Positions 27,720-61,413 are shown, counted from the whole stretch's first letter. The stretch is DNA of 61,413 bases, filler included, from 7 parts of 7 records of this genome joined end to end with filler, not necessarily neighbours in it, one strand, 5' to 3'. The notes: generated by a model from the sequence alone, not told the origin. Numbers and translations: made by a program.

Positions 27720-27819
27720 NNNNNNNNNNNNNNNNNNNNNNNNNNNNNNNNNNNNNNNNNNNNTTAATTAATTAANNNNNNNNNNNNNNNNNNNNNNNNN
27801 NNNNNNNNNNNNNNNNNNN
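27720..27819. other. Synthetic contig linker
   Basis: N44-TTAATTAATTAA-N44, with stops in all six frames. Confidence 0.98.
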
Positions 27820-33191: not shown

Positions 33192-33291
33192 NNNNNNNNN
33201 NNNNNNNNNNNNNNNNNNNNNNNNNNNNNNNNNNNTTAATTAATTAANNNNNNNNNNNNNNNNNNNNNNNNNNNNNNNNNNNNNNNNNNNN
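33192..33291. other. Synthetic contig linker
   Basis: N44-TTAATTAATTAA-N44. Confidence 0.98.
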
Positions 33292-33782: not shown

Positions 33783-36700
33783 CTAACGCCCACCATCCGC
33801 CTGTTCCATGGCCTCTGCAAGAGCCTCTGCTTCTATGGCAGCGATTTCCTTTCGTCTTTCATTTTCGCGGAATGACGCGTCGCTCATCTCGTCGGAAAAG
33901 CGTCTGCTGCGGCGACTCGACCTATTCTCCCTGTCCATACGATCGCGTTCCCGCGCAGTCCCAGACGTCTCGCGTTCTCGGAAACTGTCACTGTCCGAAT
34001 TGCGTCGAGCGCGGGAGCTGCGCGAGAGGATGGATCCACCGGAAGACTGCGCGCTTTTTGAGACCTTGAAGCTGCCCTGGGAACCAACTGACCCACCACT
34101 ATCGACAGCGTTGCTGCGGCGAGAACGCACGGAACTGCCACCACCGACATTGAGAATCGAGCGCGTGGAACTGCTAGAACGAATGTTGCTGCCGGCAGTG
34201 GCAGCAGGCTTGGCTCTGAGCACACGACGGAGGTCCAATTTGCCGCCACCCTTCGCTTTCGCTTTTGCAGTAGAGCCGAGCGCAAATGTGGAGCTCGAGG
34301 TCTGCCCACTTCGCCCACCGGTGTCATCGACGCTGCCCCTCAGGTAGTTCGAGCCCGAGTTCCCTTGCTGCAGAGACTCCAACGCTGCCCGATACTTCCA
34401 AGAGGAGTTAGAACGCAAGTCACCGTCGTCGTACCTGCCACCCCGGCTGACAGAGTTGCTAGTCAACTTCGAGGCACCGCCAGCACTACTGCCGCTGGAG
34501 AGGATTGACTTAGAGCGCAGTGCTGGGTCGCCGACCTTGAAACTTCCCGACTTAAAGCTCCCACCTGAGCGATACGAATCGCCTCCAGAGCGAAGCGTGT
34601 TGGCCCTGAAGGATCCCTGTGCTGAGAAGCTACCGTCTGAGTTGAAACTTCCTGCAGACTGGAGGCTACCGGCCCGAAAACTACCTCCTGATCTAAAACT
34701 ACCGGACCTAAAGCTGCCGCCGGAGCGGAACGACTCACCACCTGCACCAGACCTAAAACTCTGGCCACCTGAGACGAACGATCCGCCGCTGGGTGCTTTG
34801 AAAGAACCACCAGCTGAGACGAACGAACCACCGGACTTGATTGAGTCAGAGCGCAGAGAGCCCGCGCCGTCAGAAGAGTCATCACCTCTGTCTTCTCCCC
34901 TTCCATGTACAGCCTCCCGCATGGCAAACTCAAAGCGTCTCTGCTCAAGCAGAGACATGCCCATCTCACTCAGGTCTTCTGTTGAGATGTGCGCCAAATC
35001 ATCTGGACTGCGGGCTCCGATTCGATGGAACTCTCCAGCGTAGTGCTCGAGCCGCACCTCTGCAAGAAACAATGCAACATCCCTGAATGAGCCGCTGCCA
35101 TCGATCTGAGATCTGACACCGCCCTGTTCCTCACCACGTTCGCGATATGAACTGACCTTGCGATCTTCTCCTGTCTTCGTGGTCTTCGAGAAATTGACTG
35201 ACTTCGAGCGCAAAGAACTGGATTTGACATTCCGCAGCGATCCCGACTTTATATTGCGTAGCGACCCTGATTTCAGAGAGCCTGATTTAAGTGACGAGGC
35301 GCGTAGTGAAGAAGCTGGAAGATGGCCGCTTGAGCGTGATCGGGTGGAGTCCGAGCTTAAGTCGGCGCTGTGTCGCCGTACTCCATCGTCACTCCACTCT
35401 TCGTAGCTGTTCGAGCGCAAGTGACTAGATCCACACATGCTTATGATAACAAGCAGCGCGAGCTCGATGACGACGCGTAATGCTACAGCTACAGCGATGA
35501 CAATAGATGAACCTGCTTCAATCTGATCCTCGGTTGATAGCAAGAGGTCCAGCGCTGTAGTGACGCACACAGCAAACAGTGAAAGTAGACACGCCAGCGA
35601 CACACACCACCGCGCTCGTAAGGCAATTTTAAGTGCACCTGTAGCGTCGGCGACTGGCTTGTCGTATCCATCGTCCTTATAGTCTGGATGAATTTTGGCG
35701 ACTGTGGCTGACCAGCCGCCACCCACGAGCATTTGGCGAATTGGCGTCACTGTCAAATCTGCCAGGGCAAACTCAATCACTGCCACGATCGCTCCGGCCC
35801 ACCAGCTCGCTGTAGCAGCGATGATTGGTGGAATGAGCACAGACCCACAGATGATCAACGTGATCTCGAACGCAAGCGCGGTCAAGTGTACGGATCGATA
35901 CGCGCAGCTCACGTTGACTGTGCAGCACAACGCGAATGGAACTGAGGCTTTCGCGAGCGAATCTGCGCGTCTTCTTGCAACGCATGAACGTGGACGCAGA
36001 GCCAGTGTGCCAATTGCACGAAGATGGATGCTGAAAACGACAAGTATCGCTGCAGCTACGGCACACAGCAGCAGCAAAAGAGCACATTGGAATGCAGAGA
36101 AGGTTTCGGCCTCGGTGGAGTCATCAACGAGGCCCTCGTCATTCTTCGCAACATTCAAGCTGACAGTAGTGCTGTCTTGAACAGGCAAAGCAACATAACT
36201 TCCTATCGAGGCGAAAGAACAGCGAAGCACCTCCGAGCTTAACCTCTCCGAGCTAGTCGAAGCTTCAATTTGCCAGATTCCCGTTGAAGCGTTCCACGAC
36301 CCGCAGCCAAGGGTGACGTTCTGTGATGACGCGAAGATCTGCATGTCCAGACGGACTCTATCAGATGAACGCCGGCCAACGAGAGCTCGGTCCCCGATGT
36401 TCAATGAAAACACGGAAGAACCGAAAAGAGTGCCCTGTTCCGGGTTTGTCTGTTGTGGAAAACTGTCTGATTTCCACTCAATTAGAGACGAATGAGCTCC
36501 GTCACTATCAACGATGTTTTCTGCTGAATCCGCTGAATCCAGAAGACGCGCAGGTAAACTGAATGTGCTTGTTGCGGTACGGGGGTAGACCTGTATTGCA
36601 ATGGCGAACAGACGATGGTCTTGCTCAAACGCCACCTCTCCAGCAACGCGCTGTGATCCCACTGCCGCACCGGTTTTATGCAGAGCAGCCTCACACCTGA

Positions 36701-39700
36701 GTAGGGTTGCTCTCAGCGTATCCTGGTCACTTGCATACAAGACCGCTGACGCTGCAATTGCACTGTGCATCGATGATAGTATGCTGCCAGCCGTTGCATC
36801 ATTCATGCTATAGTCTCCGTGTGACAGATCTTCACAAACTGACACTGTCGTCATGACCGATGTAGCATCAAGCTCGATGCTGACAGTTGTTATGCTCGCC
36901 AGAGTCTGTGCAAGCCGTTCTGCAATATCCGATGTCACAGTTTGCGTTTCAGTCAAGCTCCGTAGATTTTCTACCAGCAAGCGGCGCGTCGACGTAAAGT
37001 CTTCAATGTTATCCTCGGCCTCCGTAAATACACAGCCGCTCGGACATGTGGTTGAGGGTTCGACAGCATCGCCAGGGATATATCCAGTCGTGCAGTCGAA
37101 TACTATCGCAGTACAAGTTTCACCAGCATCAGTCCGCGTTAGACTACAGGTCGGCGGACAGCTAGTCGATGGACTTTCTGCGGTGCCTGGGATGTACCCT
37201 GTGCAAGAATCCACTTCGCAAGTCTCAGCGGACTCTGCAAGCCGCCTACGCGTTCCAGCATGGTTCAGGGTGTCGGCTATAGATTGCACAATCTGGGCGG
37301 ATTTCTGCACGTCTCCCTGAGCACTTGCACCATCCAGCAAGCGCGTTGCAAGCGACTCTATTGTGCCCGTGCCGGCCTGAATCGGAGACACGCTGACCGA
37401 CCCGACAGCTGAACTCCGACTGCCATACATATCTTCAGCTTCGACAAATGCAGGATACGATCCTGCGCTGCTCACATCTCCAGGAGGAAGCAGGCTGCCT
37501 ACCTGTGACAATCGTTGGAAGTCCGACAAATACCTGATTGTGTCATGCGACCCGTAGCCAAACCGGTACGACAACGGCCGGTCTTCATCGTAGAAATCAG
37601 TCGCACGAATGGTGAAAACGGTCACCAGTGCAGTGCCTGCAGTCGGCTCTACGACAGCAACGCCCGCAGATGGTGGTTCGTTCACTTCAATTGTCAGTTG
37701 GGAGTACCCTTGCACCATGCCTGTAGTTGCGGTAAGCTTAAAACAGTACACATTCCCCGGTTGCAGCACATAGGGCTGCAAAACAAGGTTCGTAGCTGAT
37801 CTTTCTGTCAGAAGCGAATCATCCCCTAGCACCAGATACGCACAATCATCGCTGTCCGGCCAACTCCAGTAGGAAGTGTATTCAAGGCCACGAGTGGTAA
37901 TGTCTCCTTGCAGGGTGAGTTTCTCATCATTGTTGACCTTCGTGTGGAGCTGATCTCGAACTGTAATGCCAACACTTGGTGGCACCCATCCCACCTTTGT
38001 TATGAACACAGTTGCCGAAGCAGACCTGCCCTCGTTGCTTACAATCACTGAAAATTCGTATGTGGAATCAGTGTCGGACAATTCTTGAGCATCGATTTCC
38101 CATATCTCAGAGAAGCCGAGCTCAGAGGTGTCGAAGCAATCTCGGCCATCATCTTTTTTGCATGTCCAAGCAAAGGATAGGGTAGCGTCCTCCGCAGCAG
38201 CTGGATCATATGACGTACTGGCATCAAGAGAAAACACCTCATCGTAGCCGACGAGCCTCCGAGTACCACCCGTGATACTGGCAATCATGGGTTCTGGTTT
38301 GCATGTCAGGACGACTGAATCAATGCTAGTAGTCACAACGTTGTTGCTAGTACGGTGGTGAGCCTGTACTTGTACCACATTAGACAGGCCTCGCGCTAGC
38401 TTGCCACGCGAGATATATAGCGTTGTGGTAGTCTCGTCCTGTTGCCTGTCTGAGTTGATATACCACACCAACTCGAGGCGGCCTTCGGACCGGCATGTGG
38501 GGAGGTTAGCTGTTGCATGCAGCAATACTGGCTGTGAGCATCGGACTTCCATCGGAGACGGCCCTTGTATAGACACCAGTGGGACGTCCTTAGCTATTCT
38601 GCGAACCGAATGAGAAGTTGTATCTTCTAGTTGCAGGACTGGATCGAAAATAGTCAGATAGAAGGTCAGATCCTGCCCTCGATCAAGATAGTTTACGTGC
38701 AAGTTGGGCCACTCGCTTGTTGGCAGCACCAACCGCAATGACCCTGTTGCGTTCAATAGAATTTGTTCCATACCAGGGAACACTGCTCCATCTGGTGTAT
38801 CCCAGCTCCATTGGGTTGTAAGCGACGAGGTTGAGCTTGCGCCCCCACTTGATGTTGAACCGTCCAGCTCAATAAAATCAACACACGGGCGACGGTCTGA
38901 GCCGTGACTGAGTTGATCTGGTCCGATGATGACAGCGGATGGATGCACTGGATCAGTCGGTGCCCGGATCGTCAATGTTCCCCACAAGGCATGTTCGATT
39001 GGACCCGAGAGAGTCTCTTGATAGATGGTCCATATTGTGCACGGTTGAAGAACAAATTCATCGTTGGGATAGATGTGCCCGTCAACTCCCACAGAGATCC
39101 TCAACGTGTTGGCAGATTCTTGGTGCTCACATAGGGCCTGGCTCCCGAGCGCGACTTCAGGCGACAGACTGATCCCATGACGAATGATGCGTTGCAGCAA
39201 GGCCACACATGTCGAGAGTGCTGGCCCATCCACTAGATCTCGGGTATGGCCGTCAATCGCAAAATCTACAGTCCTGAGTGACGGTGCCAAATGGGCTTCC
39301 ACTGCGATTGCCGTTTCAGCACTCTGTTCACCTGACTCACATGTCGCACAGGTACGGCCGCTATAACCAGTGACACACGAGCAAACGAAACGTTCAACCG
39401 AAGCTCCCATTCCTTGAGTGCACGCCCCAGCATTCAAACACGGCGCATCTGCGCACTCATCAATGTCCTCTGCACAGTTGTCGCCTTCGAATCCGGAGGT
39501 ACAGCTGCATGAATACGTGTGCTCGTCGTCATCGTCTACACATTCGCCAGAGTTTTCGCAAGGCATGGATGTACAGTAGTCAATATTTACCGTGCAGCTC
39601 GGCCCAGTCCAGCCAGGGTCGCATCGATTGAAGGCGTCACTGCCGCACTGTTCAGGGTCTTGGCAACAGCCCTGAGAATCATCACAGAAGTACACGCAAG

Positions 39701-41426
39701 TGCCGTCGTCCTCGTTAGCAAACGTGGCATGGTTGATCGCATTTGGATCTGTGCATCCAAGTCTCACGACTGCACATCCTTGTGGACCCCGTGGATCCCC
39801 GATGAACCCCCTGGGACATACGCAGGAATGCTGGCCTTGCCCCTCGTATTTGCATTCCGACCCGGGAGGGCAGTCATCATCCGCAGTAGTGCACGGATCG
39901 ATCTCGCAGCTCCCATCATCACTGTTGGCAGATAGCAGAAAATTGGTCGCAACCGGATTGGTGCAGCCATATATACGAGCCATACATACACCAAACTGTG
40001 TGTTTGCGGTAGGGTTGTAGTTTAAGGCCGTCTCATCGATGCAACCGTAGACTCTTCGAATGCAGCTGCCATCATCTGCATTGGCGGTGGCATTGTAATT
40101 CCAGCTGGATGCATCCATGCAACCTAGCACCTTTGCAACGCAAGAACCATCATCCAAGTCTGCTGCGGTGTCAAAGTTCAGTGCTTCTGCGTCCGTACAG
40201 CCCAGGATTGGATTTGGTTCGCAATTGAACCCATCCCAGAAGAACCCTACAGGGCACTCACATTCGGAAGACCCGGGTCCGGTGAAGACGCAGGTCGCTG
40301 AATCAGGACACCCATGTGTCCCAGTTGCACATGGATTGTAGTAGCACGTGCTAGGATCTTCCTCAGTATCTGCAGATAGATCGAAATTGTGTGCACCGGG
40401 ATGAAAAGAGCAACTCATATATTCGCAACGCTGCCTGGCAGTATCAAAGTGGACCCCTCGAACCTCTACCTCAGCGCAGGATGCCGCGTTGGCTATGTCA
40501 ATTGAAGTGCAAGTAGGACCATCTGTACAGCCCTTGATTTCAGGCACGCATCGCATTTCATCACCTCCAATGTTTTTGTAGTTGGGTAGGCACATGCATT
40601 CATAGCTATCTGCACCAATATTGGGTACGCATAAAGTGTTGGCACCGCATGCGACCTCTGCCAATTCTTCGCACCGATCGATGATGCAAGTGCCATCGTC
40701 AGTGTTGGCATTAGGATTCCTGTTGACCGCGTACTCGCTAGTGCATCCTAGGACAACTGCGACACATCCGTCATCCTCGCCGGTCGGCATCGTGTTCGCA
40801 GCAGGGTTGTAGTTGTAAGCTTCCTCCCACATGCATCCAACGACAACAGACTCACAACCACCATTGTCTACCGTTGCAGTTGACATGTAGTTGAAGGCAT
40901 CCGGATCGGTGCAGCCAAGGATGATCTCAGTTTCGCAACTAGCACCGAAAAAATTGGCACTGCATTTGCAACCATAGGCATCTAATTGGTTAGCTTCGAA
41001 AAATTCATAGTCTTGGCAGTTGCCACCACAGCAACGTGCACTTGGCAATGTGGCGAAGTTGTCGCGACCGAGACAGCAACGCCCATCAGACTCTCGATAG
41101 TTAAAGGAAATGCAGCCTTCGTTCTGTGTACACAACGCCGCGCATTCCGGCCTATTCAGGTCTGTTTGACACAGCCACTCCTGCTCGCGATACATTTTGC
41201 AGCCCTCGAAAGGGCCCGCGAAGTTCGCAACGGAACTGGAACTGATGGTATACGCTGGAACAATGCTCGATTCATAGCACGTCGCGCCATTCTGGCACGG
41301 TGCGGACGAGCACTCGTCGATGTCAACCTCGCACTCCTCGCCACCCCAACCATCCGCACAAACGCACGTGTAGTCATCAACAGCAATCGTCGCAATTGTT
41401 GAGTCTAAGCAAGCACCACTGTTCTG
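33783..41426 (-). CDS. 5'-truncated polycystin-1-like receptor (at least 2547 aa): EGF, PAN, 9 GCTD-type repeats, REJ, GAIN/GPS-like, ~5 TM, SAM, Ser/Gly/Arg-rich tail
   Basis: Frame stays open to the contig end and encodes EGF upstream of the listed Met. REJ motifs LDASTSYDP..LSFAWTC and NEPPSAG..VEPTAGTALVTVFTI..DEDRPLSYRF; GPS-like CGSWNASTGIW; SAM VALFLAEVRLEHY..LSEMGMS. Confidence 0.85.
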   Translation of the reverse strand, partial: QNSGACLDSTIATIAVDDYTCVCADGWGGEECEVDIDECSSAPCQNGATCYESSIVPAYTISSSSVANFAGPFEGCKMYREQEWLCQTDLNRPECAALCTQNEGCISFNYRESDGRCCLGRDNFATLPSARCCGGNCQDYEFFEANQLDAYGCKCSANFFGASCETEIILGCTDPDAFNYMSTATVDNGGCESVVVGCMWEEAYNYNPAANTMPTGEDDGCVAVVLGCTSEYAVNRNPNANTDDGTCIIDRCEELAEVACGANTLCVPNIGADSYECMCLPNYKNIGGDEMRCVPEIKGCTDGPTCTSIDIANAASCAEVEVRGVHFDTARQRCEYMSCSFHPGAHNFDLSADTEEDPSTCYYNPCATGTHGCPDSATCVFTGPGSSECECPVGFFWDGFNCEPNPILGCTDAEALNFDTAADLDDGSCVAKVLGCMDASSWNYNATANADDGSCIRRVYGCIDETALNYNPTANTQFGVCMARIYGCTNPVATNFLLSANSDDGSCEIDPCTTADDDCPPGSECKYEGQGQHSCVCPRGFIGDPRGPQGCAVVRLGCTDPNAINHATFANEDDGTCVYFCDDSQGCCQDPEQCGSDAFNRCDPGWTGPSCTVNIDYCTSMPCENSGECVDDDDEHTYSCSCTSGFEGDNCAEDIDECADAPCLNAGACTQGMGASVERFVCSCVTGYSGRTCATCESGEQSAETAIAVEAHLAPSLRTVDFAIDGHTRDLVDGPALSTCVALLQRIIRHGISLSPEVALGSQALCEHQESANTLRISVGVDGHIYPNDEFVLQPCTIWTIYQETLSGPIEHALWGTLTIRAPTDPVHPSAVIIGPDQLSHGSDRRPCVDFIELDGSTSSGGASSTSSLTTQWSWDTPDGAVFPGMEQILLNATGSLRLVLPTSEWPNLHVNYLDRGQDLTFYLTIFDPVLQLEDTTSHSVRRIAKDVPLVSIQGPSPMEVRCSQPVLLHATANLPTCRSEGRLELVWYINSDRQQDETTTTLYISRGKLARGLSNVVQVQAHHRTSNNVVTTSIDSVVLTCKPEPMIASITGGTRRLVGYDEVFSLDASTSYDPAAAEDATLSFAWTCKKDDGRDCFDTSELGFSEIWEIDAQELSDTDSTYEFSVIVSNEGRSASATVFITKVGWVPPSVGITVRDQLHTKVNNDEKLTLQGDITTRGLEYTSYWSWPDSDDCAYLVLGDDSLLTERSATNLVLQPYVLQPGNVYCFKLTATTGMVQGYSQLTIEVNEPPSAGVAVVEPTAGTALVTVFTIRATDFYDEDRPLSYRFGYGSHDTIRYLSDFQRLSQVGSLLPPGDVSSAGSYPAFVEAEDMYGSRSSAVGSVSVSPIQAGTGTIESLATRLLDGASAQGDVQKSAQIVQSIADTLNHAGTRRRLAESAETCEVDSCTGYIPGTAESPSTSCPPTCSLTRTDAGETCTAIVFDCTTGYIPGDAVEPSTTCPSGCVFTEAEDNIEDFTSTRRLLVENLRSLTETQTVTSDIAERLAQTLASITTVSIELDATSVMTTVSVCEDLSHGDYSMNDATAGSILSSMHSAIAASAVLYASDQDTLRATLLRCEAALHKTGAAVGSQRVAGEVAFEQDHRLFAIAIQVYPRTATSTFSLPARLLDSADSAENIVDSDGAHSSLIEWKSDSFPQQTNPEQGTLFGSSVFSLNIGDRALVGRRSSDRVRLDMQIFASSQNVTLGCGSWNASTGIWQIEASTSSERLSSEVLRCSFASIGSYVALPVQDSTTVSLNVAKNDEGLVDDSTEAETFSAFQCALLLLLCAVAAAILVVFSIHLRAIGTLALRPRSCVARRRADSLAKASVPFALCCTVNVSCAYRSVHLTALAFEITLIICGSVLIPPIIAATASWWAGAIVAVIEFALADLTVTPIRQMLVGGGWSATVAKIHPDYKDDGYDKPVADATGALKIALRARWCVSLACLLSLFAVCVTTALDLLLSTEDQIEAGSSIVIAVAVALRVVIELALLVIISMCGSSHLRSNSYEEWSDDGVRRHSADLSSDSTRSRSSGHLPASSLRASSLKSGSLKSGSLRNIKSGSLRNVKSSSLRSKSVNFSKTTKTGEDRKVSSYRERGEEQGGVRSQIDGSGSFRDVALFLAEVRLEHYAGEFHRIGARSPDDLAHISTEDLSEMGMSLLEQRRFEFAMREAVHGRGEDRGDDSSDGAGSLRSDSIKSGGSFVSAGGSFKAPSGGSFVSGGQSFRSGAGGESFRSGGSFRSGSFRSGGSFRAGSLQSAGSFNSDGSFSAQGSFRANTLRSGGDSYRSGGSFKSGSFKVGDPALRSKSILSSGSSAGGASKLTSNSVSRGGRYDDGDLRSNSSWKYRAALESLQQGNSGSNYLRGSVDDTGGRSGQTSSSTFALGSTAKAKAKGGGKLDLRRVLRAKPAATAGSNIRSSSSTRSILNVGGGSSVRSRRSNAVDSGGSVGSQGSFKVSKSAQSSGGSILSRSSRARRNSDSDSFRERETSGTARERDRMDRENRSSRRSRRFSDEMSDASFRENERRKEIAAIEAEALAEAMEQADGGR

Positions 41427-41526
41427 NNNNNNNNNNNNNNNNNNNNNNNNNNNNNNNNNNNNNNNNNNNNTTAATTAATTAANNNNNNNNNNNNNNNNNN
41501 NNNNNNNNNNNNNNNNNNNNNNNNNN
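41427..41526. other. Synthetic contig linker
   Basis: N44-TTAATTAATTAA-N44. Confidence 0.98.
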
Positions 41527-41974: not shown

Positions 41975-44774
41975 ATGGCCGTGCCTCCGTCGTCTCCTGG
42001 CGAGCCGCTGGCGGCTGGGGCATCGGTGCCCTTACCTCGCGTTCGGAAGAATGACGTGTTGTTCTATGTACCAGAGGACGACAACGGCGCCGTGACGTAC
42101 TATCCACAGGTCGTGAAGTTGGACAGCCCACGATTCCGTGCGTCGATGGAGTTCCATGGGGTGGAGATGTTCCAGCTGGAACGGCAGCCGGAGCACGGGC
42201 CCTATGGTAGCAAGGTCGGTTCTGCGGGGCCGCTGGTGGCGCGCAAGCGTAGGGATGCGTGGGATAAGTTGCGCGCCAAAAATCTCGGCATTGTGCTTCG
42301 CGGCCGGGACAAGATGGTGCAGCAGGAGGCACGCGAAAAGGAGGCAAGGCTGAAGGCGGCGGCCGAAGGCTTTGGCCAAGTATCGATCGCGGAGCAGTTG
42401 CAGGAGCAGCGGAGCGCCATGATAGCCATGGCAGAAGCGCAGGCCAAAGCTACGGGCGAGGCCATGCAGCGTCGGCTGGCAGACGTACAGAAACAGGTGG
42501 AGTCTGAGAAGTCCCTCGCCGACGCCCGGGTCAAGAAGCAGAAGGAAATCATGATCGAGCTAGAGAAGCGCAAGGAAGCGCAGCGCAAGAAGACAGCCGC
42601 GCAGAGAAAGCAGGCACAACAGGCTCAACTGGAGCGGGAACGACTGAAAGCAGAGCGCTACGAGAAGCAGCAGGCAGAGAAGGCGTCGAAGCTGTACAAG
42701 TATGCTGAGGCGGATCAGGTTCGGGAGGCGGAAGCGGCCCAGCGGCGCTCGGAGTTGCGCCGTCGATCCCTGGCGTTTGCACGGAAGCATCAGCGCAAGA
42801 TTGCAAGGATCAAGGCAGCGAAAATTGTGAAAGAAGAGGAGCGCGTGATTATGGGCGAAGAAACTGCGGTTAAAGTGGCGGAGAGCGAGAAAATTAGGAT
42901 GGAACGGGTGGCAGCACGAAAGGAGGCAGTGATGGCAGAAAATAAGGAGCGCAGCAGACAAGCCGAGATCCGGTTGCAGAGCCACATCGAGAAGCTTGCA
43001 AGACAGGAAGAAGAGCTGAAGGTGGCAGCTGCAAAGAAAGAAGTTGAGGTCACAGAGCGCGTGGCGGCAAACAAGAAGCGAATTGCAGAGGAAACAGAGG
43101 CAGCGAGGGCGGAGGAAAAGAAGAAGGCCGAGGTCATTGCTCAGAAGCTGTTGATGGGTGAAGCGCATCGAAAAGAGAAGGCAAAAGTGCTGGTACGTGG
43201 GCGGCAATGGCTTCTGTTTCGGCTTCTGATGTAGTAGCCTCAGAGGCCCGCGAATCCATGGTCGCTGTCTGTTGTGGCGTAGCGATATATGAAATAGGAA
43301 GATTAGACTGGGTTGCAAATACGTAGTCTGCACGTCACGTCGACTAGGCGAACCGTTGCATCTGGTGCTGTTTCTCATTGCACCACTGCAATGTGTTGGC
43401 CCACAGGCGGCGGCGGCGGCGGAAAAAGACGCAGAGATTGCTGAAGTTCAGAAACGGCGAGAGGAAGGATATGTGGTGCGGGCGGAGGACAGCCGGCTGA
43501 AATTTGCAGAGAAAAGAGATTTTGTGGACCGGAAAAAGCGGCTTGAGGAAGCAGCGCGGTGCGTCGGTCCTGCGTCCAGGTTAGTGGTAGATAGCTGTCT
43601 TATTTGGTTGTGTTTGGGCAGGCGCAAGCGAGAGGAGCAGGTGGAAGAGAAGGACCATTACACCACCGAAGTAATTCAGCAGAAACGAGAGTATGTGGCA
43701 ATGCGGAGAGACATGGCGATACGTTCTATGGTTGAGGTAACACCGGCTGATGACACGACTCGTTGCTTGTTGCTCCGGCTGTGCATGGTTGAACAAGATT
43801 TTTCACGCCCTGCTCAGTACTGAATCTGGTGTGACCACGCCGTCGAATGTGGCAGGTGCGCTCGCTCTTTGACGCTGCGAAGGAAAACAGACCCGCGTCC
43901 GCCGATCCAACAGGGATCGAGGTGCGAGCAGCCGAACTTAGACAGCGCGAGCTGGAGCTATCCAGCTGTCCTGGTGGGAAAGGGGGCAGCAAGAGTTCCA
44001 GTTCTGCCTCAGCTGGCATGGTGAGTAGAGCAACCCCAACTCTGCATGCTACACGTTGTCCACTGCGGCTTCGTATCAGGCGCGTGCTTGCATCCTTGTA
44101 TGTTGCTTACACACGTGAAGTGCCAGCTGCTTACACACGTGAAGTGCCACCCATTTGCTGCAAGGTGGTCGCTTACTTGTATGTGCCTCTTGATTGTCGG
44201 CGTGACCTGCCTCCAATACCAGGGACGTGGCGTGCTGACGGTTGCGGCTCCGTCTAAATCAAACGGATGGATTGGCGAGGTTGAATCGTCGATCGAACTG
44301 CAACCCTACAACCCAGACGGCCACGCAGAGAAGAGCTTCTCCCGCCCTCACTCTGCAGCCTCAGTCGTGTCTACACGCTCAATGCCCGAGATGGGCATGA
44401 GCAAGCGCGGCAGCAGGGTTAGCATTCGGCGGAGCCAGGATGGCAGCCGTGTCGCTTCACAAGGTGCTGGAGCAATCGTTGGGCGTCGCAAGCTTCAGGT
44501 ACTGAACGAGGAAGAACAGCAACTAAAGAAGATGGTTGCTGCTGTGAAGGCCCGTGGCGGTGTTGGCGAGGGCTGGCGCCTGTACGCGCCTGGGCTGCAC
44601 GTTGGGCTGAGTTGCAAGACGGATGAGCATATTGTCGAAAAGAACAGCTTCGCCAATGGTCTGTATTCGGGTGTCTGGGGGGGAACGCGGCGCGGAGGAG
44701 ATATCGGCAGGCCGACAACACCTGGTGCAGCGGTGGTCGGTTCTCGCGAGGCAAACGCCACAAACCCGTTCTGA
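41975..44774 (+). CDS. Uncharacterised long coiled-coil protein (~733 aa); exons 41975-43192, 43407-43558, 43622-43736, 43856-44020, 44223-44774
   Basis: E/K/R/A-rich helical ORF continued through four in-phase GT-AG introns. Confidence 0.75.
44104..44149 (+). repeat. 24-bp-period tandem duplication inside an intron
   Basis: TGCTTACACACGTGAAGTGCCA occurs twice. Confidence 0.9.
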
Positions 44775-46918: not shown

Positions 46919-47018
46919 NNNNNNNNNNNNNNNNNNNNNNNNNNNNNNNNNNNNNNNNNNNNTTAATTAATTAANNNNNNNNNNNNNNNNNNNNNNNNNN
47001 NNNNNNNNNNNNNNNNNN
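46919..47018. other. Synthetic contig linker
   Basis: N44-TTAATTAATTAA-N44. Confidence 0.98.
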
Positions 47019-51237: not shown

Positions 51238-51337
51238 NNNNNNNNNNNNNNNNNNNNNNNNNNNNNNNNNNNNNNNNNNNNTTAATTAATTAANNNNNNN
51301 NNNNNNNNNNNNNNNNNNNNNNNNNNNNNNNNNNNNN
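51238..51337. other. Synthetic contig linker
   Basis: N44-TTAATTAATTAA-N44. Confidence 0.98.
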
Positions 51338-55503: not shown

Positions 55504-55603
55504 NNNNNNNNNNNNNNNNNNNNNNNNNNNNNNNNNNNNNNNNNNNNTTAATTAATTAANNNNNNNNNNNNNNNNNNNNNNNNNNNNNNNNNNNNNNNNN
55601 NNN
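55504..55603. other. Synthetic contig linker
   Basis: N44-TTAATTAATTAA-N44. Confidence 0.98.
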
Positions 55604-58600
55604 TGGCTCCGGCTCAGGCTCCGGCTCCGGCTCAAGCAACGGCTGCGCCTGTTCGCGCGGCAGCAACGGCTCCTCATCGCCATCGTGATGATGTGGACCA
55701 CTGAACTTGGCGCGCAAGCCGTCGAGCAAGGCTGCCTCCTCCTCCGTGGTCAGTTGCATCGTTTGAACGAACCTCTTGCGTGCCACTCGTGCCGCGGTGT
55801 TGAAACGAGGGCTGCTGCTACTGTCGCCCTGACCTCTGGCCTTCACCATCAGTTCAAAGTCGCCTAGCTCGGACCACTCCAACGAGTCTCCGGCAGGCGC
55901 AGCGCAGCGCCCAAGCCCAATTTCATGCAGCCAGCGCTGCACATCCGTCAGCCCCGTGTCAGCTGCCGACTCTCGCCAGATCTCGATCCGCGCCGACGCG
56001 TCGTCTGGGAAAAATCGTGCGGCAACCTGACGGAACGAGGGGCGCTTGTCCGGGCGCGTCTGCCAGCACTGCTCGATGGCATGCTGCCAATGAGCTTCGC
56101 AGCCACTAGGTATCGCGGGACGTATGCCCTGCTTAGCCCAGACCGGGATTACCACAGCAATCGCCGGCCGGCCATGGGCCGCTGCCTCCCACGCTTCGGC
56201 AAGATCCACACGCGGTGAGACCATCTCCCACAAGATCAAGCCAAACGAATACACGTCCGCCTTGGTTGTCACGGCGGATTTGGCTTTTGTGCGCTGTAGG
56301 ATCTCCGGTGCCATGTAGAAACCCGTTCCTGGCGTCTCGGCGCGCCCGAGTGAGACCTCGCGTGGCCTGTCCCTGCTGTCCCTGCTGTCCCTGCTGTCCC
56401 TGCCACCGTCTCGGTTCGATGAGGCACCACGCTGCAGCTCATCGCTGAGCTGCTCCACAGCGGCACGGGTCAATCCAAAATCAGCAAGCTTGGGTCGTAA
56501 GCCGTCCATCCTGTGTTACATTGCACACCGACACGCATACATACCGAGTTAGTTGCAGTACCAATGTGCCATATAGTGGTGGCTGAGCGATGTAATAGTG
56601 CAGACAAAACTTACAGGATATTACAGGACTTTAGGTCCATATGCGCTACACTCTTGTGGAGATGGAGGAAGAGCATACCAGAGACAATCCCGGCTGCAAT
56701 CGAGGCTCGCGTGGAAATAGGCACCGGTTGCTGCTCCCACAGGAACTGATGCAGTGTTAAACCAAGATATTCCATCACCATCCCATCTTGAGGCACAGAG
56801 GTGGAATCGAAGATTCCTCGCGTGACGCCAAGGCACTGCACCACATTCGGGTGTTGCGACCCCAGGCTGAACTCGATCTCGTTGCTCCAGTCAGAGTCAG
56901 AGCTCCGCGAGGAGGTGTAGCGCCCTGTACCGTCATCAGTCATGTGGACGGTCTTCACGGCCACAGTCTTGCCGCCACTGCTCCAAATGCCCCTCCAGAC
57001 GTCTCCGAAAGCACCACTTGTGATTTTTCGCAGGCCACTCAGGTCTTCGAAATCGATAGGCCTGTGGTGACTTGTGGGCCGGAGAGGTGCGTGGTCGTAC
57101 CGTGCCGCCCCAAGGGCCTCCAAAATCTTCTGAATCGACACACGCCTGAAGACTAAATCTTTATAGTATGGAATTACCGCACCAAAGTTGGAACTGCGAA
57201 TCGCCGATGCGACGTCAATGTAAGCAGCTTCAATACGCTGCGCGCTGGTCATGTCAGCAACTGCCGCCCGCCAGCCATGCTTGTCGTCGTAATCCTGCCA
57301 ACCGTGCCGCATATCTGTCTCACCCACCCAAACAAGGCGCACATCGTGCTCGATGCAGCGCTGCAGCATACTCAGCACCCCATCCACATTAAACAGAAGC
57401 TCGGTCAAGTACACCATCACTATTGAACCAGGGGGTGGATCGACACCGTCCACAAGCGTGCGAGAGAAACGCCCTTGCAGCGATGGACAGCAGCCAATTA
57501 GTTCTCGCTCGATGGCTGCCGTTTGACCAGCACCTCTTCGTGGGTGGTGCACAACGAAGACAGACGGCGGATCCTCAAAATCAAAGGTCACGGGTGCTGC
57601 CGCTGGCGGCACTCGTCCAAGTTTCTTGATCAGTTCTGCGAGGCTCACCGTGTGAAAGTCTGCATCGTTGATATACCAAGGTACTGCAGCATCACTGAAG
57701 ATCTCCACCAGGCCTTCCCCATCGTCATCACCGACAGACTGCGCAACATCTTCAAAGAAGGTGCCGAACGATGGCACCGCGCCGTCTCCGTCTTGCTTCC
57801 ACAGCAACACAATTGTCTTCTGGTAGTGCATGGCCCACCGTATCTCCTTCCTGCAAAATTCTCTGAGTAGCACTCCTTCAGTCAAATACAGTACAAAGTA
57901 CTGGTTGTCTCTGACACCTGTGCGCATGCCTTCAACCGAGGGATCTTCGTCCTTGTCATACCATATCATGCCTGCAAGCTCTGGAATAGTATCTTCAAGC
58001 TCCAGTTTCAAAGCCATCACGTCTGGGCCGTGCACTTGATAGTGTGACAGGAAGACACCGGGCTGTGCTGTAGCTTGGGCTCGCTCCGCCAGAGCCGCGG
58101 CGATGAGGTTGATTCGCGAAGATCCAAGTGGAGAATCTGTGGTTTCCAGCTGCAGCTGCTCTGATGCCGTTTCCATTACCTCTTGGTTCTTCATCTCCAA
58201 GGGCAGCGCCAGCTCCTCACGGATCCACGCCAGCGTCCGCACATCTGCTGCGGACAAATCCCAGCCCATTTCGATTCGAATCTCCGCTACTACGTTGTTT
58301 AAGTTTCGCATTTCCTGCCCTGACGCCAAGCCAACCATGGCACGCTGGAACTGTTTCTGAGTAGCCACGTCGGTATCCTCATGCTCTGTCTGACCAGCAG
58401 TGTCGTGCAGATGACACAGAAGGTCTAGCTTGGAAATCATTACGGCTATGAAAGCCAGAGGCACCAAGGCAACCAGAAAGAACATAAGTATCCAGGCTAC
58501 CAAAGACGTATCCAATGCAGCAAGACGATCACCGGGCATCTGGGAGATCAGTCCACCAAGAAGAAAGATGAATATGTGCAGTTCGCATAGTAGGCGAAGG

Positions 58601-61356
58601 GCGTTATCTTGCCAGAGACGGAATGGGCGTACTGCAAGAAACAAGCCAAAGAAGGCAAATGTGCTAATGATTCCGAGCACCAGCTGCCAGAGGCCAGAAC
58701 CTCTACCGAGTAGCACAGAAATGCCAATCAGCAGCAGCTTCCTCAGCATTTCGAGTGGCTCCATATACATATTTCGAAAGCCATAAGCGTCGACAAGGGT
58801 AGAAACGCCACGAGACAGCGAGAGATCCCGTACTACGATCTCAGCCTCCGTTGCCTCTAGATTGTACTTCTCTGCAAGTTGGAGGCTCACTTGCAAGTAC
58901 TTGGTCGGCTCGGATTCGAAACGGGCTTCGTGGTTTTTGTGCTTGAACAAGGACCATAGCAGGTATGTTGGTGCTCCACAGCCGACGACGATAATCATAA
59001 CCATAGATACTACCTGTATGGCAAAGAGGTCGCTGCACATGACACGGTCATCAGCGACGAGGATACTTTGGACGCTTCGCTCCAGCTGCAATGTTCGGCA
59101 ATGGAAAGAAGAGAACGCCACGTACATAACTGAGGGATACAAAATGAACAGCAGGATCTCCAAATTTCGCTTCGCATGATCACGCGCAAGGGTCTCGTTG
59201 GACATGGCCCGCTCAGTTACGTAGGCAATAGCAGCTAGCAACACTAGCGTTGAAGGCCAAAGGAGTGCTCTGATGAAAAAGGTAGTTTGGAAGTCATCCA
59301 CATCGCCACATTCGGTGATAAACCTCCATACTTGGAGCAGCAGCCTGACTCGATTTTGCATGACCAACAAACTATCGGGCCATGACGCCCTGAGGACAGC
59401 TGAAAGCAACCCAATGAGCTGAAAATGGGAGAAGGTTATGCGCAGCGGTTGGATCGCAGCTCGCAAAACTAGCCGAAGACACAGCGTGCGCCCGAACCAC
59501 AACACTGTGAAAGTGGAAGATGCCTGCATCTCTTCTCCTTGCTGCATACCAGGTACGAGATTCCACCCCCTCTTGGGCCGCCAGCGGTAGTTTGCCGCTG
59601 CAAGCACCAGCGCCACGAGCACAAAACCCAACAGCAGCACAACAACGACCGTGGCAGTGGCTGAACCTTTGGCGTCACACGAGACACAATCGTAATTGGC
59701 ATCGAGGAAGTATTCCTCCTCGCAACTCTGGCAGAGCGCTCCCGTATGCCCGGCATCACACCCCGCGGAATTCCTTCGCGCACCAGCGCAGCCCCTGAGA
59801 CTGTCACACTGAAACGCAATCCGCAGCTTGGGGTCCGATTGCATTTTCTCGACGTTACTTTCAGGCTCCACCCAATTTTCGTTTAGCAGCGGAGGACTCT
59901 GCCCTCCAGCGCACGTAGCACAGTTTGGGCACGGTTGGCACGTAAATTCCGGTGTTTCTACCATCACAGGATCAATATCGTCGTCATAGCAGAGCAAAGT
60001 ACCGGCGGAGGTGTTGTAGTACGATTGCGCACATTCGCACTCTCTCTCTGTTGCCGACAGCCTCAGTGCTAGGTCGTCACAAGATATTGGTGCTAGCCGC
60101 GGCAGAGACGGCGATGATGGTGCGCAGGGGCAACCGTAGCATCGATCTGGCTCGCAGCACGACACAGCGTCAGCACCGCTAGGCGTTGTATCGCAAACGG
60201 TGCCGGCACATCGAGTGTTAGAAGCGGTGAGGTTGCGCTTAAACCCTCCTTCGCAGTCGCTGTCAGCGATACTGCCGCATATAGCCCGCTGGGCACACCC
60301 AGAAAACTCGAACTCCGTGTTTGGACTTGAACAAGAGACTGTCGGCGGTACATCTGTCCGCTCCATTACATGGGTCTCCATGATACAGCCGATGGTGCCA
60401 AGGGCAGCAACAGTGGTGGCACCTGGATTTGCTACAATGTAGCCAAGCCGCGTCAGTCGCGAGATATCTGCTGCAACGCAGGCATTCGGGACACAGCCAC
60501 TTAACTCAAACTGCTCCAAGTCGTGGGGACACGCTGCCTTTAGGCCTGTGCTGGCTTGGTGAAAGCCATCAGAACAAGAAATCTGCCCGAGGCTGGAAAC
60601 CGTCCGAGCGGATGGGTGTTCAATACTGTATCCCGGCTCCATAGATGCGTTGACTGGTTGGCAACGATTATCGGTGCAACAGGTGGACCGGTCAACATCT
60701 AAATCACATGTGGAGTTCACACACAGCGCGTCCGTTGGCTTGAAGCCTGGTTCACAGCGCAGTGTGCTACATGCCGCCCTGCGCACACAGCCGTCAAAGC
60801 TAAACGAGCCGTTGGGTAAACATGAAACAACTGGTACTTGGCGTTGCACGTGAGTCTGACGGAAGCACTCAACTCCACCGAGGGTGGTGGCAGTCGTTGC
60901 ATCGGGGTGTTCGACTATATAGCCCATTTGCTGCAGTTCCTCGGGTGTCATTGGCTGGCATGCGTTGTTGTCTAGGTGGCAGTTGCTGGTACTGCAAGAT
61001 AACCGATCGAGACTTGAGCATTCGTTTGCTGGGCAAGCGATACATGTCAGTCCATCAAGAGAGCGAGTGTTGTCCGGACAAGGGTCGCATAACACGGAGC
61101 CGTTGCGGTAAGCACACTCAGAGCCTGTGGTGAAACCGTTTGAGGTGTTGCACGGGTAAAGGTCGCATCCGGACAAGTCCGGCACACGTAACGAGCGAGT
61201 GCCGCCCAAAAACGGGCTGAACGAGGTATTGAAGACATACATCCGCTTTGATCGATCATTTGCGTACAGGTGGTCACCGGAATCGGCTGCTTGGTTGTTC
61301 GAGAACGTGGAGCCCCGGATGTCGACTTGCCCTGAACTAACGTAGATCGCGCCGCC
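55604..61356 (-). CDS. Partial multipass receptor: beta-helix repeat, Cys-rich ectodomain, multi-TM, TIR, degenerate TIR, TKL-type protein kinase, SAM-like; exons 61356-56615 and 56510-55604 (both ends incomplete)
   Basis: GGAIY..FSNNQA; TIR VFLSHY..WYD..FVLYLT..FCRKEIRWA; kinase SGAFGDVWRG, VAVK, HMDLKSCNIL joined across a GTAAGT..CAG intron to DFG, YMAPE and DVYSFG; VQRWLHEIGL. Confidence 0.88.
56367..56402 (-). repeat. 9-bp tandem repeat x4 encoding (RDS)n in the kinase activation loop
   Basis: CTGTCCCTG x4 on the + strand. Confidence 0.9.
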
Positions 61357-61413
61357 CTAATAGACGCACCTCACGGACATTAACCGAATAATTCACTACA
61401 AGTGACATGTAGG

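Follow-up and report, generated by a model that had tools for sequence, protein, structure and literature searches.

A candidate protist membrane receptor joining a Cys-rich ectodomain, a multipass membrane block, a TIR pair and a non-RD kinase in one predicted chain

The window, i.e., the whole stretch of DNA that was analyzed (61,413 nucleotides), is composed of seven contig parts joined end to end, and its last part carries most of a large gene on the minus strand. The spliced frame encodes at least 1,883 amino acids and includes a Cys-rich ectodomain, about nine transmembrane (TM) helices, a TIR domain (TIR1), a second TIR-like domain (TIR2), and a kinase. The following features were delineated, with the basis of each assignment in brackets:

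59671–61356, minus strand: ectodomain fragment, aa 1–562 (Cys and sequon counts, alignment with the relative P0005)
60277–60960, minus strand: three tandem Cys-rich repeats of ~65 aa each, aa 133–360 (local alignments)
58387–59670, minus strand: multipass membrane block, aa 563–990 (hydropathy and AF2)
58069–58386, minus strand: helical juxtamembrane linker, aa 991–1096 (AF2 for aa 1040–1096)
57607–58068, minus strand: TIR1, predicted enzyme-type TIR domain, aa 1097–1250 (AF2, VIA, Foldseek)
57844–57846, minus strand: codon of Glu1171 in FCRKEI, candidate catalytic Glu of TIR1 (codon read)
57094–57576, minus strand: TIR2, degenerate duplicate of TIR1, aa 1261–1421 (hhalign, AF2, column counts)
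56615–57057, minus strand: kinase, exon 1 part, aa 1434–1581 (Pkinase E 1.3e-14)
56511–56614, minus strand: intron, 104 nt, phase 2 (GTAAGT...CAG)
56015–56510, minus strand: kinase, exon 2 part (PK_Tyr_Ser-Thr E 8.1e-16)
55694–55960, minus strand: conserved helical tail domain (conservation in 7 sequences)
55604–55633, minus strand: (EP)5 repeat bordering the contig end (sequence read)
55504–55603, no strand: non-biological assembly joint N44-TTAATTAATTAA-N44, adjoining the contig end at 55604

The first frame runs without stops from 61356 to 56611 (1581 aa) and the second from 56515 to 55604. An earlier, sequence-only reading had proposed that one spliced frame links these parts, and the two open frames indeed join through the GTAAGT...CAG intron, with the exon junction reading ...HMDLKSCNIL followed by MDGLRPKLADFG...; its coordinates, Glu codon, intron, and HMD loop were all recovered when frames and translation were read again. 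Splicing at 56614–56511 is supported by the comparison of related sequences: P0033 aligns across the intron without a gap (residue 359 then 360), and the intron is kept in two related genomic contigs, L002 (94% nucleotide identity) and L001 (about 71%). Both retain GT..AG and the exon flanks, have an in-frame stop at the donor, and differ from the window in the sequence and length of the intron interior. The gene is truncated at both ends, on one side by the contig joint at 55604 and on the other by the end of the window. Since the visible N-terminal part of the frame includes neither a Met start nor a signal peptide, and TAG/GG at 61357–61359 resembles a splice acceptor, one or more 5′ exons are placed outside the window. 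Linkers join the contigs, 4–8 kb each, of this fragmentary assembly (the joint occurs in six copies in the window). The window also holds further giant genes of adhesion or receptor type, whose domains include EGF, fn3, F5/8C, and REJ.

The ectodomain fragment, which lacks its N-terminus, consists of a beta-helix-like GGAIY... remnant, Cys-rich modules, and then a furin/ephrin-receptor-like stalk. It includes 52 Cys in 560 aa, compared to 13 in the remaining 1021 aa, in agreement with its earlier description as Cys-rich, along with 8 N-x-S/T sequons, and P0005 could be aligned across it. Against 200 shuffles, pairwise local alignments of the three tandem repeats had z scores of 11.6 to 24.2. 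The Pfam search was empty for these repeats, which belong to no known family, as it was for the ectodomain fragment as a whole at E ≤ 10, and no leucine-rich repeat (LRR) was matched in the part present.

Hydropathy and an AF2 model (pLDDT 70.1 for the TM block) gave nine candidate TM helices where about seven to nine had been proposed, the odd count hinging on helix 614–654, which is weakly hydrophobic (1.29) and contains four Arg. With nine helices, the N-terminus would be extracellular and the C-terminus would lie within the cell. Conserved Cys (Cys683, Cys753, and Cys774) occur only in loops with a predicted outside orientation. No hydrophobic segment was detected by hydropathy between TIR and kinase, consistent with both lying on the same side of the membrane. 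In the juxtamembrane linker, AF2 predicted three helices within aa 1040–1096 (model residues 2–9, 18–28, and 40–57), with pLDDT values of 95–96 in four of the five full 10-residue blocks and 80 in block 31–40, aa 991–1039 being outside both high-confidence models.

TIR1 was modeled by AF2 with a mean pLDDT of 91.6 and a pTM of 0.88 as a clear flavodoxin-like five-strand beta-alpha fold, confirming the TIR domain placed at ~58059–57617 by the sequence-only reading. The best VIA match was the SARM1 TIR (9hq0_A; Z 17.1, rmsd 2.0 Å over 128 of 140 residues) at 20% identity, the 20–23% to SARM1 being the highest among the structural matches, followed by C. elegans TIR-1 (Z 15.6). Animal adaptor and receptor TIRs reached Z 14–15, plant TIRs 13.5–14, and bacterial TIRs about 13. 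Foldseek also ranked SARM1 and TIR-1 at the top, with a probability of 1.00 to the TIRs of SARM1, RUN1, L6, and TLR10. Sequence profiles gave weaker scores: Pfam TIR_2 (PF13676, STIR clan) reached 17.1 bits on the window protein, below its gathering cut-off of 28 (E 0.008), was detected at E ≤ 0.001 in 27 of 42 aligned relatives, and attained 30.4 bits in P0041, while PDB sequence searches with the A2 profile and with TIR1 alone found no TIR. Glu1171, at the start of helix 127–138 and after strand 112–119 in the AF2 model, is a Glu in all 37 sequences covering this column (5 fragments without coverage were left out). The Glu of SARM1 presumably sits in a similar ..KEI.. context. Motif position and fold thus make Glu1171 a candidate counterpart of the SARM1 catalytic Glu, and TIR1 is predicted to be an enzyme-type (NADase-type) TIR from the fold match and the conserved Glu. 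Beyond this domain, however, SARM1 and TIR-1 (ARM-SAM-SAM-TIR NADases) have a different design, as SARM1 is soluble, carries an ARM autoinhibitory domain, and has a single TIR and no kinase, from which the protein described here differs on each point.

The second TIR-like block, likewise called degenerate in the sequence-only reading, aligned to TIR1 in hhalign with a probability of 99.7% (E 9e-25, 150 columns), and AF2 models it with the beta-alpha order of TIR1; it is an internal duplicate of that domain. Column counts revealed no Glu at the equivalent position, from which TIR2 is predicted to be catalytically dead; it also has an 8-residue deletion at DPSVEGMR and conserved motifs of its own (ETDMRHGW, PFYKD..FR). 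In the plant paired TIR-NLRs RRS1/RPS4, a catalytically dead TIR regulates an active one. As an analogy, TIR1 and TIR2 may resemble this pair as described, i.e., an active TIR beside a Glu-less partner, although here the pair is a tandem duplication in one chain, anchored in the membrane, with no NB-ARC or LRR core.

Both halves of the kinase score above the Pfam cut-offs, at 54.7 and 43.9 bits for Pkinase and at 45.3 and 58.5 bits for PK_Tyr_Ser-Thr. Exon 1 encodes the G-loop SGAFGDV, Lys1468 within VAVK, and the catalytic loop HMD (56635–56643), and exon 2 the DFG motif, a long low-complexity insert in the activation loop, APE, and the C-lobe. The catalytic Lys, the HxD Asp, the Asn (HMDLKSCN), DFG, and APE are thus all present, while no Arg precedes the catalytic Asp: the loop reads HMD in this protein and P0032 but HLD in P0033, P0015, and P0036. 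With P0033 as the query, the nearest solved kinases were CTR1, MAP3K12, and RIPK1. This is a complete non-RD kinase of the TKL type, in line with the intact non-RD kinase originally proposed. The SAM-like assignment of the tail was not confirmed. Pfam, including SAM, had no match to the tail of the window protein at E ≤ 10, the profile search against the PDB found no SAM, and the Atlas search returned no match. SAM_1 and SAM_2 reached 19 bits (cut-offs 23 and 20.5) only in P0012 and P0014, over the first helix only. The true C-terminus is absent; P0012 and P0014 extend beyond the (EP)5 position and carry the tail domain a second time, and two such copies after a kinase are a loose echo of the tandem SAM of SARM1.

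The overall architecture recurs in independent relatives. The kinase fusion is common to at least three of them, P0032 (73% identity) and P0033 and P0034 (55%), with a nearly identical linker between TIR2 and kinase. In other relatives, the TM-TIR1-TIR2 core is found without a kinase and with LRR, CUB+LRR, weak dCache-like, or beta-helix ectodomains, LRRs being carried on the same multipass core by P0003, P0004, and P0008. Receptor, TIR, and kinase are hence combined on a multipass scaffold as had been suggested, but the contrast drawn with an LRR receptor was too sharp because LRR or CUB+LRR relatives share this core.

No characterized protein with this exact layout was found in the literature searched, although proteins of a known kind are already in print. 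Choanoflagellate "Kinase TLRs", uncharacterized proteins with an LRR-TM-kinase-TIR order, and Kinase TIRs likewise place receptor, kinase, and TIR in one chain, and the report describing them calls kinase-TIR layouts unique to choanoflagellates and proposes that the fusion bypasses the recruitment of adaptor and kinase (Richter et al. 2018, PMC6040629). As described there, they combine LRR, one TM, kinase, and TIR, whereas here a Cys-rich/beta-helix ectodomain and nine TM helices are followed by a TIR, a putatively dead TIR, and then the kinase. The fusion here is probably independent of the choanoflagellate one because the lineage differs. TIR genes of the alga Gephyrocapsa huxleyi are reported to encode extracellular regions or multiple TM helices ahead of a TIR with the conserved Glu, to be induced early in virus infection, and to be proposed receptor-like signal generators (PMC12489294, 2025); the description there mentions neither a kinase nor a tandem TIR nor a scaffold of nine helices, and these genes may overlap with the family studied here. 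A preprint further describes a green-alga TIR that makes 3′cADPR, within a clade including haptophyte TIRs with the conserved Glu (10.64898/2026.04.20.719644). Animal TLRs with IRAK and the plant non-RD kinases FLS2 and XA21 follow the same logic of an outside sensor with an inside TIR and/or non-RD kinase. However, TLRs are single-pass with LRR ectodomains and recruit kinases in trans, and plant receptor kinases have no TIR, whereas this protein is multipass, without an LRR match, and carries TIR and kinase in cis.

Taken together, it is on balance probable that the gene specifies the greater part of a single large membrane receptor, with a surface sensor and both NAD-cleaving TIR and kinase outputs, in a marine alga-like protist. 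The same molecule could instead serve a non-immune job in mating or recognition between cells, in adhesion, or in the sensing of abiotic cues or nutrients. We consider this unlikely, even though the ectodomain repeats are of no known family and adhesion- and receptor-type genes (EGF, fn3, F5/8C, REJ) are present in the window: to our knowledge, TIR domains with a catalytic Glu are linked to defense or cell death in every studied system. In addition, a response to virus within 0.5 h is reported for the related G. huxleyi membrane TIR genes (PMC12489294). Ectodomains of the LRR, CUB, and Cache types bind generically and are no proof of immunity.

It is rather unlikely that TIR1 is a mere protein–protein scaffold recruiting other TIR proteins, with the kinase as the sole catalytic output, i.e., a TLR and IRAK in one chain. 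Animal receptor and adaptor TIRs do nearly match the SARM1 score (Z 14–15 vs. 17.1), a complete kinase is fused in the chain, and choanoflagellate Kinase TLRs have been proposed to act likewise (PMC6040629). A pure scaffold is hard to square, however, with a Glu kept in 37 of 37 relatives, kinase-less ones included, and the best structural match, with the highest identity, is the NADase SARM1. Catalytic activity is moreover reported even for animal immune TIRs (10.64898/2026.04.20.719644).

Alternatively, the nine-helix block could be a TRP-like conduit of the Pkd2/Flc type that regulates, or is regulated by, TIR and kinase (a "chanzyme"). Fungal Pkd2/Flc proteins likewise have about nine helices after an N-terminal part that is Cys-rich and luminal or outside, although they carry no TIR or kinase. 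PF06011 (TRP) was detected on the same helices, the last of the block, in three relatives (P0007, 26.9 bits, E 2.7e-6; P0006, 22.3 bits, E 6.6e-5; P0009, 17.0 bits, E 0.0028), and "TRP C-terminal domain" clusters are among the Atlas look-alikes of the TM block, which are mostly haptophyte; clusters with PF06011 in 12–13% of members scored 0.90–0.92. Charged and polar residues in or beside TM6–TM8 (E866, K873, Q891, D917, N918, R921, and E925) are also invariant or nearly so. Yet each PF06011 score is below the gathering cut-off of 28.5, the profile did not match the window protein itself, and the comparison of the TM block to PDB folds yielded no match, to solved channels or otherwise (best Foldseek E 0.16; best VIA Z 7.8, which falls within noise for helical bundles), so that we regard such a conduit as doubtful. 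Finally, an artifact, either a chimeric contig or a TIR gene wrongly joined to a kinase gene, is very improbable despite the fragmentary assembly, as TIR2 runs into the kinase N-lobe within one unbroken frame and the fusion is also found in the independent records P0032, P0033, P0034, L001, and L002.

If the region does encode a receptor with TIR and kinase outputs, the beta-helix and Cys-rich region would be the sensor outside the cell, and a rigid TIR1–TIR2 tandem, a short conserved linker, the kinase, the helical tail, and the (EP)n repeat would lie inside. Ligand binding or clustering of the ectodomain may then signal through the membrane block, upon which TIR1 would self-associate and cleave NAD+, leading to an ADP-ribose-type signal or to NAD+ depletion, with TIR2 as a built-in regulatory partner and the kinase phosphorylating downstream or neighboring proteins. 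Such a protein may sense biotic cues and have an immune role, in a family that swaps ectodomains on one TM-TIR1-TIR2 core.

The gene is encoded on the minus strand by two stop-free frames, one running from 61356 to 56611 (exon 1; 1581 aa, protein P0001) and a second running from 56515 to 55604 (exon 2; protein P0002). The first frame ends in ...HMDLKSCNIL followed by a TAA within a GTAAGT donor, and the second is preceded by a CAG acceptor and reads MDGLRPKLADFG. Splicing at 56615|56510 takes out 104 nt (56511-56614), restores the order of the kinase subdomains, and yields a product of at least 1,883 residues. The sequence-only reading had named this intron at the same coordinates, and it is kept in two related genomic contigs, L002 (94% nucleotide identity to the window gene) and L001 (~71%): both retain the flanking exon sequence and, in the same position, a GT(A/G)AGT donor and CAG acceptor, all three genes have the in-frame stop at the donor, and the three intron interiors differ in sequence and length. 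The relatives P0033 and P0015 read ...HLDLKSNNILMDGSRPKIADFG... uninterrupted across the intron site, and residues 359 and 360 of P0033 flank the intron gap when it is aligned with the window gene. Overall, this comparative evidence provides good support for the predicted intron.

The gene is truncated at both ends. At the upstream end, TAG|GG opens the frame, with neither Met nor signal peptide, and the window stops 57 nt further; a relative, P0005, has ~450 extra N-terminal residues compared with the window protein. At 55604, while inside an (EP)5 repeat, the frame meets the last of six joints of the form N44-TTAATTAATTAA-N44:

27720-27819, joint between contigs
33192-33291, joint between contigs
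41427-41526, joint between contigs
46919-47018, joint between contigs
51238-51337, joint between contigs
55504-55603, joint between contigs, abutting exon 2

These split the window into separate contigs of ~4-28 kb, and gene order across a joint is meaningless. Because the joints separate contigs, what follows the 55604 joint is unrelated sequence, and the gene lacks a usable genomic neighborhood. No further copies of any domain of the gene were found within the window.

Relatives were gathered and 42 sequences aligned (alignment A2), and a structure was predicted for aa 1040-1440 (mean pLDDT 91.6, pTM 0.88). On the window protein, Pfam TIR_2 scored 17.1 bits, below the cut-off of 28, and searches of PDB sequences with the A2 profile and with TIR1 alone found no TIR, their sole row being a chance-level match to a hemolysin-related protein (E 0.52). 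A TIR_2 match at E ≤ 0.001 was obtained for 27 of the 42 aligned sequences. In the model, residues 58-211 (aa 1097-1250, TIR1) matched the SARM1 TIR with a Z of 17.1 and an rmsd of 2.0 Å over 128 aligned residues (20% identity), the next structural match being C. elegans TIR-1 (Z 15.6), followed by the TIRs of animal receptors and adaptors (14-15), those of plants (13.5-14), and those of bacteria (~13). SARM1 and TIR-1 also took the top Foldseek ranks. Against a viral fold library (BFVD), the model returned two rows at E ≤ 0.001, namely a glycosyltransferase of Solumvirus (probability 0.41, E 6.2e-4) and a TIR/WD40 protein of Tetraselmis virus 1 (probability 1.00, E 8.7e-4), the next row being a TIR protein ("Toll-like receptor") of Chrysochromulina ericina virus (E 1.6e-3). 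None of these seems to be a close relative. Algal giant viruses have TIR-domain proteins matching TIR1, and haptophyte viruses with TIR genes could bear on a virus-host arms race.

Profiles of aa 1095-1254 and aa 1261-1424 were cut from A2 and compared by hhalign, which aligned them over 150 columns with a probability of 99.7% (E 9e-25). This match, together with the beta-alpha order that both blocks share in the model, indicates that the second block (TIR2) is a tandem TIR duplicate. In TIR2, the column matching Glu1171 of TIR1 is hydrophobic or variable, and eight residues are deleted opposite DPSVEGMR of TIR1, between strand 2 and the next helix. The duplicate has conserved motifs of its own, ETDMRHGW and PFYKD..FR, with E1346 of the former present in 32 of 34 covering sequences. 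The pTM of the two-domain model suggests that the predicted mutual arrangement of TIR1 and TIR2 is fixed.

The first 560 aa contain 52 Cys and 8 sequons, as well as three repeats of ~65 aa that were missed by a BLAST self-comparison of the ectodomain and recovered by direct pairwise alignment (z 11.6-24.2 against shuffles); no Pfam family matches them. Hydropathy and an AlphaFold2 model (pLDDT 70.1, pTM 0.70) yielded nine candidate transmembrane helices, by which the N-terminus would lie outside and the TIR and kinase inside, and no transmembrane segment lies between TIR and kinase. Within the membrane block, conserved Cys occur only in predicted outside loops (Cys683, 10 of 11 sequences; Cys753 and Cys774, 13 of 13 each), which supports this topology; its weak point is the helix at 614-654, with a hydropathy of 1.29 and four Arg. 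Foldseek returned no row at E ≤ 0.001 for the membrane-block model against solved structures, and the best match of this block in a wide VIA search had a Z of 7.8 (Hrd1, de novo helical designs); the rows of both searches were taken as noise. In the Atlas the block resembles mainly haptophyte clusters, some of them labeled TRP C-terminal or Ephrin_rec_like, and PF06011 (TRP, fungal Pkd2/Flc type) was detected below threshold over the same helices in three relatives.

The exon 1 and exon 2 halves of the kinase each pass Pfam, and the G-loop, VAVK (Lys1468), HMDLKSCN, DFG, and APE motifs were all found. The catalytic loop is non-RD, with HMD in the window protein and HMD or HLD in relatives. Using the relative P0033 as query, the closest solved kinases were CTR1, MAP3K12, and RIPK1, which points to a TKL-like kinase. 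The tail, spanning aa 186-274 of P0002, shows conservation across seven sequences, and P0012 and P0014 have a second copy beyond the EP repeat. The domains, frame, and intron described in the sequence-only reading were borne out, and its interpretation as a receptor, TIR, and non-RD kinase in a single chain is supported in part. The SAM-like character of the tail is an exception: no Pfam, PDB profile, or Atlas search of the tail gave an above-threshold result, the last two gave no match, and matches to SAM_1/SAM_2 were below threshold, covered the first helix only, and came from two relatives. Repeats of (EP)3 or longer were observed near the C-terminus of 8 of the 184 collected proteins (the window protein at 55604-55633, P0007, P0008, P0010, P0014, P0017, P0033, and P0059), with or without a kinase and membrane-bound or soluble; they could be a motif that these proteins share for sorting or docking, or could reflect a compositional tendency of the lineage.

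Scanned with phmmer, 1.84 billion representatives yielded 492 matches at E ≤ 0.001, including 22 at E ≤ 1e-30. Sorted by domain with local phmmer, the 150 matches listed comprised 111 with TIR1 only, 33 with TIR1 and TIR2, 5 with TIR2 only, and 1 with neither; among the 33, two carry the kinase type of the window protein. The fusion of TIR2 and kinase, with a near-identical linker, also occurs in P0032 (73% identity), P0033, and P0034 (55%). Eight long relatives combine the membrane block, TIR1, and TIR2 without the kinase, and have LRR, CUB + LRR, weak dCache-like, or beta-helix ectodomains. The tandem TIR was also found in soluble relatives, joined to an N-terminal kinase (P0047, P0051), WWE (P0057, P0059), or FYVE and ankyrin (P0072). 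This is the pattern of a receptor family, in which sensors are exchanged on a single signaling core.

Some records showed additional features. P0036, with a Sushi-repeat ectodomain, one transmembrane helix, and a non-RD (HLD) kinase of the same subfamily, is a conventional single-pass receptor kinase with the window kinase type. In P0008 (CUB + LRR), an apparent extra canonical TIR_2-type domain, judged by eye from the sequence and a precomputed Pfam list, lies within TIR2, between its halves (~1900-2130). P0032 has 17 additional residues in TIR1 (~95-111, after ...IWYDKDN, between local TIR1 matches 46-94 and 112-224); this stretch, listed with L001 and absent from the window gene, is possibly an in-frame intron left unspliced in that record. 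Elsewhere in the window, a single stop-free plus-strand frame at 3511-25476 encodes 7,321 aa; EGF, Teneurin-EGF, fn3, and F5/8 type C matches in the first 3,000 aa suggest a giant extracellular adhesion-type protein, and the other 4,321 aa have no Pfam match at E ≤ 1e-5. A minus-strand stop-free frame at 33783-41474 (2,563 aa), which reaches a contig joint, has REJ (E 1.1e-53) and EGF_3 matches, and its product looks like a polycystin-1/REJ-type receptor. The 2-kb bin at 42001-44000 has a GC skew of 0.238 and an AT skew of 0.219, far exceeding the rest of the window.

Glu1171 (codon 57844-57846) is matched by Glu in all 37 sequences covering its column, the remaining five being fragments, and it lies in a ..KEI.. 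context similar to what we take to be that of the catalytic Glu of SARM1. The enzyme-type TIR is strongly constrained, and the non-RD kinase was added in the branch of the window gene. With moderate confidence, we read the protein as a surface sensor that would signal through NAD+ chemistry by TIR1 and through phosphorylation, TIR2 being a regulatory partner built into the chain; enzyme activity, inter-domain coupling, and the immune role are what we infer here. A non-immune role, which overlaps this reading, is rather unlikely. Set beside the Glu1171 column, a TIR serving only as a scaffold is unlikely. A channel-type core, compatible with the sensor reading, is quite unlikely, and the invariant polar residues in TM6-TM8 leave room for a conduit function. 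We consider it very unlikely that a single self-contained receptor-enzyme-channel polypeptide combines the sensing step, synthesis of a second messenger, reception of that messenger, and ion flux. In such a protein, ligand binding outside would activate TIR1, whose ADP-ribose-type product would be sensed in cis, either at the conserved ETDMRHGW pocket of TIR2, the dead copy, or by the nine-helix TRP-like block, with the latter opening as an ion conduit; the kinase would relay or reset the signal. This would be a single-chain counterpart of the route by which plant TIRs act through EDS1 and helper NLRs to bring about Ca2+ entry, and also analogous to TRPM2, an ADPR-gated channel; the WWE fusions of TIR1-TIR2 fit an ADP-ribose-type ligand link, because WWE domains bind ADP-ribose. 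That the gene is an artefact is hardly credible.

LRR-TM-kinase-TIR "Kinase TLRs" and soluble "Kinase TIRs" were described in choanoflagellates, and called choanoflagellate-only (Richter et al. 2018, PMC6040629). G. huxleyi TIR genes are reported to have extracellular regions or multiple transmembrane helices, a conserved Glu, and early induction upon infection (2025, PMC12489294), and a preprint reports that a green-alga TIR makes 3'cADPR and belongs to a clade that includes haptophyte TIRs (2026, 10.64898/2026.04.20.719644). The literature searched contained no account of a multipass protein with the TIR-TIR-kinase layout. The window gene shows that fusions of TIR and kinase also arose outside choanoflagellates, the lineage in which they were first described and to which they were supposedly unique. 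TIR domains are a currency of immunity common to bacteria, plants, and animals, and to our knowledge almost nothing is established about TIR wiring in the large protist groups behind ocean primary production. Haptophyte-virus systems control blooms. The family of this gene combines a single multipass TIR1-TIR2 core with exchangeable sensors (LRR, CUB, Cache-like, beta-helix), and if the TIR is active, its members would be candidates for immune receptors at the algal surface that write an NAD-derived signal directly at the membrane.
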